DNA from: Oscillospiraceae bacterium
Lineage (GTDB): Bacteria > Bacillota > Clostridia > Oscillospirales > Oscillospiraceae
Assembly: GCA_017887695.1 (NCBI GenBank)
Contig: JAGHHM010000071.1
Location: 1-51,185 of the forward strand
Reading direction: 5' to 3'
Length of the DNA stretch: 51,185 nt
The notes beneath the pieces were generated by a model. The model searched no databases and was not told where the DNA came from. It saw only the letters and a list, made by a program, of their open reading frames with translations. The translations under genes and the position numbers were made by a program. This document shows positions 45,287-47,640 of the stretch, piece by piece; within the stretch, counting starts at the first letter, position 1, and every line of letters begins with the position of its first letter.

Positions 45287-45790
45287 TCAGTAAGAACTGA
45301 TGGCCATGGAAGCATCGTCCTCACCTTTCTCTATGGCACGGATCACCACAAAATACTTCAGGTCGTCTCTGACGGTAACCTGGACCCGATCCCCTACCTG
45401 ATGTCCCAGCACCGCTTTGCCAACCGGCGACTCCTTGCTGATAAGACCTTTCAGCGCATCCTGCCGGAGAGTCGTAACGAGCTGGATCGTCATTTCCTTA
45501 TTCAGCATCTCATTAAAGATGGTAACCTTGTCAAAAAGCCCCACCTCTGCTTCATCAGAGGAGGCCGAAATCACCTTGGCCGTACGGATCATCCGCTCCA
45601 GATAGCGGATGCGGCTCTCATTACGGTTTTTCTCCTGCTTGGCGCACTTGTATTCGAAGTTTTCACTGAGATCCCCAAACCCCCTGGCAATCTGAACGTC
45701 CTCAATCAGCTTGGGCCGCAGGACCCGGACCCGGTAGTCCACCTCTTCCTTCATTTTCTGAATATCTACTTCCGTCAGTTCATCGTACAT
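45287..45790 (-). CDS. greA: transcription elongation factor GreA
   Basis: Frame of ORF 45287..45817. ATG at 45790 follows AAGGAG. The coiled-coil finger has the acidic tip motif GDLSENFEY. C-terminal globular domain. Confidence 0.9.
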   Translation of the reverse strand: MYDELTEVDIQKMKEEVDYRVRVLRPKLIEDVQIARGFGDLSENFEYKCAKQEKNRNESRIRYLERMIRTAKVISASSDEAEVGLFDKVTIFNEMLNKEMTIQLVTTLRQDALKGLISKESPVGKAVLGHQVGDRVQVTVRDDLKYFVVIRAIEKGEDDASMAISSY

Positions 45791-45890: not shown

Positions 45891-45919
45891 TTGACATTTC
45901 TATTGATCTATTGTATATT
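45891..45919 (+). promoter_or_regulatory. near-consensus sigma-A promoter of the orphan RNA candidate
   Basis: TTGACA (45891-45896), 17-nt spacer, TATATT (45914-45919). Confidence 0.6.
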
Positions 45920-45925
45920 TTAATC

Positions 45926-46303
45926 ACAGGAAGACAAAGTCAAAAAGTAAGGACTCAGCAAAGAAGATCCCTGGCAAGTGTCCTTAGTCATGTCCCTGCA
46001 AATCTACCAAGGAGGTACGGTCCAATGTACAACGTAGCCTGATCCGCAAGGATGCTTAAGTTGTTCAGCGGATCAAACAAATCCAGTTTCCCAAGCAAGC
46101 GGAACCTTTTCGCACACGAAAGCAGCCATGGATGACCGTATCCAGAGAAGAGTTCGACTCTCAAGAAGCACTGTCTAACCGTACGGCAAAAGCGACAATC
46201 CGCGCAAGGGAACCCACGAAAGGTGGACACAACATTTGACAACCGAATACGTGCAGTAGCCCCACAGTCGCAAGTGTGATTGTGGGGCTGCTGCTATGTT
46301 TCC
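45926..46303 (+). ncRNA. candidate structured non-coding RNA of unknown family (~370 nt)
   Basis: Runs from its own promoter to a 14-bp terminator-like stem (46253-46266/46281-46294). No sense ORF of 60 aa or more. Local hairpins at 45948-45986, 46041-46074, 46107-46122, 46129-46144 and 46149-46161. ATCC-GCAA-GGAT tetraloop hairpin and a T-loop-like GTTCGAC. Confidence 0.45.
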
Positions 46304-46368
46304 CTCTTCACGCCTTTAAGTGTACCACCTTTCCCTGCTTCTCTTCAAGAGGCAACATTCCGAAAATC

Positions 46369-46400
46369 ACCCCGCCCCGGGGCCAAAACCGGGGCGGGGT
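46369..46400. terminator. bidirectional intrinsic terminator (sleC-like gene / plus-strand RNA)
   Basis: 12-bp GC stem ACCCCGCCCCGG / CCGGGGCGGGGT, followed by TTTCTTT on the plus strand and GATTTTCGG on the minus strand. Lies 5 nt beyond the sleC-like stop. Confidence 0.8.
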
Positions 46401-46404
46401 TTCT

Positions 46405-47640
46405 TTATGCCGCCAGTTTGGCGACCGCCACATAAATATTGGAAATACTGTACCAGGTGGCAAAATCCACTTCCCCGGTCTGAGGCATATGGAAAATGCT
46501 CTGGAAAGTCCGTACCGCCTCTTCTGTTTCCTCGCCGTAGACACCATCCGCCCGGACAGCCGGCAGTGCCGGGAAATTCTCACGGATCCGGTTGAGCTGG
46601 AGCTGGATAGTGCGCACATCCTCTCCGGCGGAACCAAGAGACAGGGTCGTGCCCCCAAACGACATGGGAACGCCTTCCACCTTTTCTGCCGGAGCCAGAT
46701 AGATATCGGAACCATAGTAGCGCCGCAGAATGCTGATCGCATCCCAGCCCTGCTCCCCCAAAGCCTGAGAGCCCCATTGGGACAGGCCGTCGCATTGGGT
46801 CCGACGTCCATCACAATATTGGGTCAGCAACGGCTGGCCCGCCCCTTCCCGGGTAATGTAGGTATTGAACAGATCATCCACTACAACGGAAATCTGCTCA
46901 AAAATGGTTCTCCCAGGCACAAAAGACTGATCATAGGCTGTGGAATTAGTAATTGTAAAGTCATATCCCTTGCCACGATACCACTCGGTATATACCCGGT
47001 TCAGCGTAAAGGAAATAATAGCCAACACATTGGCTTTGATGGTTTCTGTGGCCCAGGTGGCATAAATCTCACTGCATGCCACATTCTTGATATAGTCCCG
47101 GAACAGTACCCATTCATTGGGTGCTCCTTCATCATCCGGTTTTCCCAGATGGACGATGATATACTCCGGGATTACCGGTTCCGGCAAAACTACCAAGCCG
47201 CCGGGATCCGGCAAAGGTTTAACATCCGCCTCCGGAATCTTGGGCGGAAAATCTCCCCAAAGAGTGTGGGGTGCTATGTACAAATTGCGTACATTAAACC
47301 CGCCGGATCTGGCAGGACTCAGCGCCGCCGGCTGTACCGCCAACCCATCCGGCAACAGCTGTACACCTCCGATATGGAGCGTCTCAAACCCCTCTGCCAA
47401 AACCGTCACTGAATAGGACGCATAGGGCTTGCTGTCCCCTTTGTTGATGGAATCGGCAGCAGGTGGTGTCGGTAACTCTACCGCCTGTGTCTGGCCGGAA
47501 GAATCTGTGGTGAGCTCCAGGCGCACCGATGCGTCAGCGGGATCACTGATCCGTACGGTTGCCCCGCTGATGGGCACCACCCGGCTCTCCGTAGTCACCG
47601 TTACCTGTAAACGCCCCTGTCCTGTATAAGCTGGATTCAT
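46405..47640 (-). CDS. SleC-like spore cortex-lytic enzyme (SpoIID/LytB-like domain + PG_binding_1)
   Basis: ORF 46405..47640 after AAGGAGG. Central SpoIID-like region (YIKNVACSEIYATWATETIKANVLAIISFTLNRV). C-terminal peptidoglycan-binding repeat (GEDVRTIQLQLNRI..DGVYGEETEEAVRTFQ). Divergent from the csp subtilase genes. Confidence 0.7.
   Translation of the reverse strand: MNPAYTGQGRLQVTVTTESRVVPISGATVRISDPADASVRLELTTDSSGQTQAVELPTPPAADSINKGDSKPYASYSVTVLAEGFETLHIGGVQLLPDGLAVQPAALSPARSGGFNVRNLYIAPHTLWGDFPPKIPEADVKPLPDPGGLVVLPEPVIPEYIIVHLGKPDDEGAPNEWVLFRDYIKNVACSEIYATWATETIKANVLAIISFTLNRVYTEWYRGKGYDFTITNSTAYDQSFVPGRTIFEQISVVVDDLFNTYITREGAGQPLLTQYCDGRRTQCDGLSQWGSQALGEQGWDAISILRRYYGSDIYLAPAEKVEGVPMSFGGTTLSLGSAGEDVRTIQLQLNRIRENFPALPAVRADGVYGEETEEAVRTFQSIFHMPQTGEVDFATWYSISNIYVAVAKLAA

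Follow-up and report, generated by a model that had tools for sequence, protein, structure and literature searches.

Between positions 45891 and 46294 on the forward strand of contig JAGHHM010000071.1 (assembly GCA_017887695.1, Oscillospiraceae bacterium) lies a free-standing gene for an abundant structured RNA, equipped with a strong sigma-A promoter and an intrinsic terminator of its own. The whole contig of 51,185 nucleotides (nt) is here called the window, and all coordinates refer to it. The RNA is about 370 nt long in this lineage and has a conserved core of about 290 nt. The family to which it belongs is absent from Rfam, was not found in the literature searched, and was seen only in part of the Oscillospiraceae. 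To judge from their sequence, both ends of the RNA would be ribosome start sites, each opening a frame of a few codons, and the second of these frames ends inside the terminator hairpin. Oscillospiraceae are major, mostly uncultured gut bacteria and, to our knowledge, almost nothing is known about their regulatory RNAs.

Results

The RNA Gene and Its Transcript

The gene occupies the gap between greA and a sleC-like gene, both of which are on the opposite strand (Table 1), as an earlier preliminary description of this DNA had stated. The promoter recognized there, TTGACA-17-TATATT, matches the consensus in all but one of its 12 positions, and the same promoter is found upstream of the RNA in nearly all relatives. 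The terminal hairpin is also present; it had been described with 14 base pairs (bp) and is scored here with 19, of which 11 are G-C. Between the promoter and position 46275 the plus strand has no open reading frame (ORF) of 60 or more amino acids, again as described, and the sole long plus-strand ORF, which begins at 46276, is a shadow of sleC. The region is richer in A and T than its flanks (GC content 0.415–0.48 versus 0.50–0.61), its plus strand is A-rich, and this strand folds better than shuffled sequences (z = −4.1), by a wider margin than the minus strand (z = −2.6). A strand bias had been claimed for both GCAA and GAAA tetranucleotides. It holds for GCAA, with 8 occurrences on the plus strand and none on the minus strand (shuffles 2.4 ± 1.5), but GAAA is not enriched in the region. 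The gene is single-copy in its own genome.

The stretch is present in six metatranscriptome runs from four studies, and the DNA runs that contain it are chicken-gut or gut metagenomes. The expression data consist of assembled metatranscriptome contigs, from which neither the strand nor the exact ends can be read and levels only roughly, and close relatives contribute to the summed depth. One RNA contig covers 45934–46363 (430 nt, 100% identical, depth 111), so that a transcript of about the size predicted in the preliminary description is present; further RNA contigs cover 45908–46245 and 45935–46248. A fourth run has a summed k-mer depth of 7.7e3–1.5e5 across 45932–46236, to be compared with 5.8 for greA and 2.5–129 for sleC. 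The RNA is expressed, and the contrast with the flanking genes is very large despite the contig-based data.

The depth drops about 100-fold at the terminator, and one of the RNA contigs extends past it, to 46363. The contigs of two studies start at 45934 and 45935, i.e., about 15 nt past the −10 box. The 5′ leader of the window lineage is covered by RNA contigs with a summed depth about 10-fold lower than that of the core. Because of the orientation of promoter and terminator, and because G-U pairs are frequent in the helices, the transcript is assigned to the plus strand. At position 46126, about one fifth of the summed depth in one metatranscriptome lacks one C (GCAGCCAUGG changed to GCAGCAUGG). 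Since GCAGCAUGG is the sequence of the closest relatives, this run contains several strains or species that carry the RNA.

Table 1. Positions of the RNA gene, its structural and putative translational elements, and the flanking genes
Feature	Position	Strand	Description
greA	45287–45790	−	Flanks the RNA gene
Sigma-A type promoter	45891–45919	+	TTGACA-17-TATATT, 11/12 consensus matches
Lineage-specific 5′ leader	45926–46007 (~80 nt)	+	Hairpin AAGGAC (45949–45954) / GUCCUU (45980–45985)
Putative 5′ ribosome start module and mini-ORF 1	46009–46042	+	AAGGAGGUACGGUCCAAUGUACA (46009–46031); AUG 46025 to UGA 46042, MYNVA
Hairpin H2	46040–46075	+	UGAUCCGC (46040–46047) / GCGGAUCA (46068–46075); 5/8 pairs with double changes, 89.5% of cells paired
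Long-range helix P2	46088–46092 / 46208–46212	+	UUCCC / GGGAA; 3/4 pairs change on both sides
CU-rich patch, candidate anti-Shine-Dalgarno	46104–46110	+	ACCUUUU
Junction stem within P2	46123–46125 / 46171–46173	+	CAG / CUG; 1/3 pairs change on both sides
Hairpin P3 within P2	46129–46144	+	4/5 pairs change on both sides
Hairpin P4 within P2	46149–46161	+	4/4 pairs change on both sides
Putative 3′ ribosome start site and mini-ORF 2	46218–46259	+	Shine-Dalgarno GAAAGGUGGA (46218–46227); UUG 46236 to UAG 46259, MTTEYVQ, 7 codons
Intrinsic terminator	46253–46304	+	19-bp stem (46253–46294), GCAA loop, U-rich tail
Second GC hairpin	46369–46400		12 bp, U-runs on both strands
sleC-like gene	46405–47640	−	Flanks the RNA gene on the other side

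Conservation of the Family

A BLAST search of 24 genomes of the genus gave 17 matches, all of which span 46001–46300, and the conserved core is 46004–46300. The unit of about 370 nt in the preliminary description therefore needs one amendment: the unit as such is there, but what is conserved is a core of about 290 nt, beginning at about 46004, while the first 80 nt or so are specific to the lineage. Only the window and the four relatives closest to it have this leader, and elsewhere the promoter lies about 12–20 nt before the 5′ Shine-Dalgarno (SD) sequence (CAAGGAGGUACGG).

With R1, a covariance model built on the core (252 positions and 30 pairs, most of the terminator left out), the RNA is found in 26 of 49 species in the genus; among high-quality genomes, 13 of 27 have it. 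Weaker matches occur in three other genera of the family, with 74 and 39 bits in the first, 30 bits in the second and 19.5 bits in the third. The 30-bit match is a short RNA of a tandem type (class B-like, see below) and not a full member, from which follows that diverged forms of the RNA (19–74 bits) are present in two other genera. The named records are all Oscillospiraceae or "Clostridiales" metagenome-assembled genomes (MAGs), several of them labelled Candidatus Pelethomonas. Two species with larger genomes (G019, L098:1500–1780, and G050, L100:1460–1750) are without the 5′ SD and mini-ORF module and without hairpin H2, and keep the rest; in both, the RNA adjoins greA and the internal SD is a perfect or near-perfect GGAGG. 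The copy in Ca. Pelethomonas intestinigallinarum (G010, L019:1640–2200, also L059) has hairpin P4 replaced by an insertion of about 540 nt, which has no match in Rfam and folds no better than shuffled sequences (z = +1.2).

The preliminary description had suggested a scan against Rfam. In Rfam 15 there is no gathering-level match in 45891–46400, and at E-values of up to 10 there are weak, terminator-driven junk matches of 15–23 bits; the copies in relatives have no Rfam match either. The families looked for include tmRNA, RNase P, 6S, SRP, raiA, ROOL, GOLLD, OLE, HEARO, riboswitches and T-box, and the earlier statement that the RNA is outside tmRNA, RNase P, SRP and 6S is upheld. In particular, the RNA is neither a divergent RNase P RNA nor a divergent tmRNA, because carriers have canonical copies elsewhere: RNase P type A in all five carriers tested (four above the family cut-off), and tmRNA on other contigs in four of the five. 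In the genome to which the window belongs (G000, a 93%-complete MAG in 201 contigs) RNase P RNA (RF00010, RF00011) and tmRNA (RF00023, ARAGORN) were not detected, which is probably an assembly gap; SRP RNA is found in it. The best 6S match in this genome, on contig C76, scores only 33 bits.

Secondary Structure

The fold was evaluated in two alignments, one of 21 sequences made with MAFFT and one of 28 model-aligned sequences, which leans towards the model. In the former, 91% of the cells are paired, compared with 32–45% when the 3′ partners are slid, and 28 of the 50 pairs change on both sides. In the latter, the corresponding numbers are 90% and 31–45%, and 17 of the 30 core pairs change on both sides. 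The RNA is conserved and folded, with five covarying helices in addition to the terminator (Table 1), so that the conservation and covariation that the preliminary description had asked of relatives are both there. In the terminator, 15 of the 19 pairs change on both sides and 95% of the cells are paired, and its frequent G-U pairs fix its strand as plus.

Several pairings proposed earlier give way to this fold. Neither of the long-range pairings is conserved: for GTACGGT with ACCGTAC, close relatives have AGCGTAT opposite an invariant 5′ partner, and GTCAAA with TTTGAC has its 5′ arm in the leader that most relatives lack. The "T-loop" GAGTTCGACTC is the covarying hairpin P4, which is of variable sequence, and the local hairpin ATCC-GCAA-GGAT is displaced by the longer stem UGAUCCGC/GCGGAUCA in the covariation-supported fold. 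We also considered a long-range helix P1, between AUGUACAA and UUGACA, and found zero compensatory changes. This helix is unsupported, because G019 and G050 keep its 3′ strand although the 5′ strand is missing there, and because two loci (L143 and L150) have AUG ACC UAC UGA instead.

A pyrimidine patch occurs in every member between the strands of P2. It would be able to form 4–6 bp with the SD sequence near the 3′ end, and in the window 7 bp with the one near the 5′ end. The register of this putative anti-SD pairing (CCUUU/AAAGG) shifts between members, and for this reason it gives no clean covariation.

Two Putative Ribosome Start Sites

Consider first the 5′ end of the core. Here the SD sequence AAGGAGGU is followed, after 8 nt, by AUG UAC. 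The preliminary description had noted AGGAGG at 46010–46015, 9 nt ahead of the ATG at 46025, and the frame MYNVA behind it, and these coordinates are exact. Among 21 aligned members the module AAGGAGGUACGGUCCAAUGUACA is nearly invariant, spacer included, and the frame that it opens (ORF1) has 3–5 codons in relatives (MYR, MYK, MYNEA and others). In most relatives AAGGAGGU, which is complementary to the 3′ end of 16S rRNA, lies 12–20 nt past the inferred transcription start, which is the position near the 5′ end that characterizes a STAB-SD; in the window the distance is about 84 nt.

Consider then the 3′ end, where there is a second and better-conserved mini-ORF (ORF2) that the preliminary description had missed. 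The distance from its SD sequence (SD2) to its UUG is 8 nt in the window and 8–10 nt in the family: the UUG is invariant and SD2 is conserved, while the spacer between them is free to vary. The consensus of the frame is UUG ACA AYN GAA YAN NNN NNN stop, with the peptide M-T-T/I-E-x-x-x, and in every one of codons 2–5 the third position has the highest column entropy. The in-frame stop, seen as UAG, UAA or UGA, directly abuts the CCCC that starts the core of the terminator stem in 26 of 27 distinct members, and in 11 of 11 loci obtained by a pattern search. In the sole exception (G002) the stop comes one codon earlier, 3 nt from CCCC (UAA CAG CCCC), and represents a compensated stop shift. In another member (G008) ORF2 has an in-frame insertion of 3 nt.

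The string SD-UUG-ACA-AYN-GAA also stands at the start of ordinary genes, namely in Ligaoa zhengdingensis and one Clostridiales MAG. These matches were rejected as homologues, being ordinary gene starts, but for the same reason they indicate that the string is a workable start site. A search of the own genome for a real gene start that ORF2 might mimic gave no convincing second copy. A longer frame from the ATG at 46129 (MDDRIQ...) was discarded, as length and frame both vary and it runs through hairpins P3 and P4, which covary. Taken together, the sequence patterns suggest that both ends of the RNA are ribosome start sites, and that ribosomes probably read ORF2. The presence of two such putative sites on one RNA, and of the 3′ one especially, is a new observation.

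A pattern that combines ORF2 with the stem edge was found at 29 loci in 185,579 species genomes, and 25 of them are Oscillospiraceae or Clostridia. Among these loci are those of Papillibacter and of a clade of rabbit-gut MAGs, whose RNAs have a different and shorter body (about 240 nt) together with the same type of promoter, a 5′ SD/AUG module and the same ORF2-terminator end. Since the body changes across genera, and since G019 and G050 drop the 5′ module, ORF2 together with the terminator is the most widely kept part.

Tandem Arrays with the Same Start Module

In other Oscillospiraceae MAGs there are loci (class B: L064:3476–3950, L039, L029, L025, L043:3500–4030 and L021:400–690) where the SD-spacer-AUG module of the window RNA occurs in 2–5 tandem units with a period of 107–112 nt. 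Each unit contains a tract rich in C and U and a small hairpin, together with a stem GUGUUAU/AUAACAC around a frame of 9–10 codons (MKLDFKxxxK and variants, MIGNRATIK, MRFANRSAIK), which is paired with a frame of MYS or MNS type. The array ends with a frame of 7–10 codons (e.g., MEIEELK or MVLDFKSEQK), the stop of which abuts the terminator stem. Class B and the window RNA (class A) have in common the start module of about 22 nt, GGAGGUACRGUCCNAUG, and a final frame that stops at the terminator stem; they differ in that class B repeats the module, each copy coming after a 9–10-codon frame, and is without the class A body. The class B loci have no match in Rfam, and the own genome has no class B array.

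Genomic Neighbourhood

In about 60% of the loci, greA is divergent from the RNA gene and within about 110–200 nt of it. In G003 and in the group of G001 and G018 the distance is 1.3–1.8 kb, and greA was not seen in the flanks examined of G005, G008, G011, G013, G015, G045, G048 and G212. The gene downstream of the RNA is almost always convergent, is of unrelated kinds, and often ends 2–17 nt from the terminator of the RNA (24 loci, crude ORF calls); no same-strand downstream gene that the RNA could regulate in cis was found across these 24 loci. As the downstream genes are convergent and varied, the RNA is not the leader of any gene. The preliminary description had proposed either a stand-alone structured RNA or a short leader-peptide unit with no gene downstream, and this agrees with the covarying helices, the transcript and the convergent downstream genes.

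The second GC hairpin, which the preliminary description had also reported and which was detected here, is located 4 nt beyond the sleC stop at 46405 and is outside the conserved RNA in the alignments of relatives. It is probably a two-way terminator shared with sleC, which would also catch read-through from the RNA gene. On the minus strand, a weak promoter-like site, TTGTCT-16-TACAAT (9/12 matches, 45905–45940), overlaps the −10 box of the RNA promoter back to back. If this site serves greA, then greA and the RNA gene would share overlapping divergent promoters.

Discussion

A Possible Ribosome at Each End

The reading that we favour, with moderate confidence, is that the RNA is a translation-coupled riboregulator, in which ribosomes protect the 5′ end and, on reading the terminal mini-frame, are driven into the terminator hairpin. 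The maximal SD and the 3–5-codon AUG-UAC frame would hold a ribosome at the 5′ site, and this ribosome would shield the RNA from 5′-to-3′ decay, in the way that strong SD sequences protect RNA in the STAB-SD and the hbs leader of Bacillus (PMC5737220, PMC4113751). The stop codon of ORF2 is in the 5′ arm of the terminator stem, and a ribosome that reads the 3′ frame would have to melt the hairpin. The fold and the lifetime of the RNA would then report the translational state of the cell.

A number of observations weigh against this proposal. The translation of either frame is deduced from sequence patterns, and the RNA sequencing reads come as assembled contigs, with the limits on strand, ends, levels and relatives stated above. 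The SD of the window is about 84 nt away from the 5′ end and not adjacent to it, and G019 and G050 have no 5′ module. Thermodynamic folds and base-pair probabilities show no consistent partner or masking of either SD sequence. Codons 6–8 of ORF2 are inside the terminator stem, and their pattern is also bound by pairing. Finally, in the own genome ACA is the rarest Thr codon (10%) and GAA the minor Glu codon (33%), while the UAC of ORF1 is the major Tyr codon; both ACA and GAA are almost fixed in ORF2, and for ACA, being fixed although it is the rarest codon, a constraint at the nucleotide level fits better than selection on the peptide.

The main rival takes up this last point. It says that the RNA is purely non-coding and structured, that the SD-like tracts and UUGACAAYNGAAYA are binding sites for protein or RNA, or seeds (e.g., for C-rich small RNAs), and that the mini-frames are unread. 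The covarying helices and the unpaired conserved segments are what such an RNA would have, the nucleotides of the 5′-module spacer are themselves conserved, although a plain start site has no need of this, the minor codons of ORF2 hardly vary, and G019 and G050 manage without the 5′ module. However, an unread frame does not readily account for an in-frame stop that is maintained through three different stop codons, for the compensated shift of the stop in G002 and the 3-nt insertion in G008, for a conserved SD with a variable spacer and an invariant UUG, which is the pattern of a start site, or for the peak of third-position variability in four codons out of four. We consider a purely non-coding RNA unlikely, while taking it more seriously than any of the explanations that follow.

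Suppose instead that the frames are read for the sake of their products, i.e., that the RNA is a small mRNA for the heptapeptide fMet-Thr-Thr/Ile-Glu-x-x-x, and perhaps also for the tri- to pentapeptide of the 5′ frame, with a body that serves only stability or translational control. The features of ORF2 (UUG, in-frame stop, third-position variability), its conservative replacements (Thr/Ile, and Glu kept as GAA or GAG, with Asp once) and the very high transcript level are in line with this. Seven residues, two or three of them free, leave, however, very little from which to make a specific function; the terminator stem sets the final three codons, minor codons are used, and there is no linked gene for export, modification or reception, the neighbours being variable. 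An mRNA of this kind is improbable.

Somewhat more improbable still is that the mini-ORFs tie up a component of translation, either a tRNA as peptidyl-tRNA or the initiating 30S subunit, like the CreT toxins and the bar minigenes of phage lambda, which are the precedents (PMC8501985, PMC2490762). The combination of a maximal SD with very short frames, the rare ACA at the opening of ORF2 and the very high abundance would suit such a trap. With respect to the codons, the likeness to CreT is incomplete: strong SD sequences and mini-ORFs are present, but ACA is a single rare codon in ORF2 and not one of a run, and the Tyr codon of ORF1 is the major one. A neighbouring CRISPR-Cas system or CreA-like partner is also missing, the flanks being greA and the sleC/csp germination genes, and housekeeping genes in relatives, and the abundance of the RNA in situ is unexpected for a toxin that arrests growth.

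Very improbable is an element that acts in cis, be it the leader or attenuator of a neighbouring gene, an antisense RNA that reaches the convergent gene by read-through, or a partner of greA in promoter interference. In favour, greA is often divergent and close by, the stop of ORF2 inside the terminator recalls leader-peptide attenuators, and one RNA contig extends past the terminator to 46363. Against this, nearly all loci have a convergent gene downstream, and these genes are of unrelated kinds, by which a downstream leader or attenuator is ruled out, greA is not adjacent in at least 8 species, and the depth falls about 100-fold at the terminator.

A sponge for CsrA, similar to CsrB or RsmZ, is hardly credible: four or five A(N)GGA motifs exist (GGA at 46009, 46047, 46127, 46205 and 46220), one of them (CAAGGAUG) in the H2 loop, but those of H2 and P3 are not conserved as loop motifs, and the idea is rejected because CsrA (PF02599) was not found in 12 of the 26 carriers, i.e., in the own genome and in 11 others, six of which are 94–98% complete. 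Within the genus, the number of CsrA-domain matches varies from 0 to 7 per genome, with multiple copies mostly in the larger genomes (3–4 Mb).

The proposal of a translation-coupled riboregulator can be extended beyond the genus, although this extension is tentative and we think it rather less likely to be right than wrong. The window RNA would then be a member of a broad, undescribed class in gut Clostridia, "bookend mini-ORF RNAs", which are abundant and folded, and whose only universal parts are two ribosome start sites, with the 3′ frame ending inside the terminator hairpin. Such RNAs might work via the ribosome: they would sense or buffer translational capacity or a specific tRNA, or else yield a conserved formyl-heptapeptide, and would not act by base-pairing with targets.

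Comparison with Known Systems

In chicken-gut metatranscriptomes, the k-mer depth of the RNA exceeds that of the neighbouring genes by 2–4 orders of magnitude, and yet no described family matches it. The general outline is familiar from orphan structured RNAs that stand alone in Firmicutes, such as the raiA motif RNA, and from dual-function small RNAs with a small ORF, such as SR1 of B. subtilis and RNAIII of S. aureus. Like the window RNA, these have their own promoter and terminator, a length of a few hundred nucleotides and helices that covary; they are highly abundant and place an ORF within a regulatory RNA. The window RNA differs from them in that it matches no Rfam 15 model, and in that its frames have 3–7 codons and are at both extremities, the 3′ one ending in the terminator.

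For the 5′ end, the closest systems are the cryIIIA STAB-SD from B. thuringiensis and the leader with a strong SD on the hbs mRNA from B. subtilis, both of which precede real genes (PMC4113751, PMC5737220). By analogy, the maximal SD near the 5′ end of the family, AAGGAGGU, could hold a ribosome and block 5′-to-3′ decay. In the family, however, this SD opens a frame of 3–5 codons, and in the window lineage it is placed behind an added hairpin.

The CreT toxins of CreTA modules and the lambda bar minigenes are small RNAs in which a strong SD and a frame of only a few codons are followed by a stem-loop (PMC8501985, PMC2490762). All three are present in the window RNA, where ORF2 moreover starts with the rare codon ACA. 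The differences are that the window RNA has no CRISPR-Cas or CreA neighbour and no tandem rare codons, and that it has a large folded body between its two frames. Its abundance in natural samples makes toxicity unlikely.

With attenuators of the trpL, pyrL and ermCL type, the family shares a tiny frame so placed that a ribosome on it would overlap a terminator hairpin. In those systems a gene follows, whereas the family has no same-strand gene after the terminator in any locus examined, and the terminator ends the unit.

The family now has a covariance model and defined ends. If ribosomes engage both of these ends, the RNA would be a natural example of how the activity or stability of an RNA is read out by the translation of minimal frames, and a chromosomal, non-toxic counterpart to the CreT and bar minigenes. 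Its layout, with a folded body between a maximal start site that opens a 3–5-codon frame and a UUG-initiated 7-codon frame that ends in the terminator stem, is unlike any characterized class of bacterial RNA that we have found.

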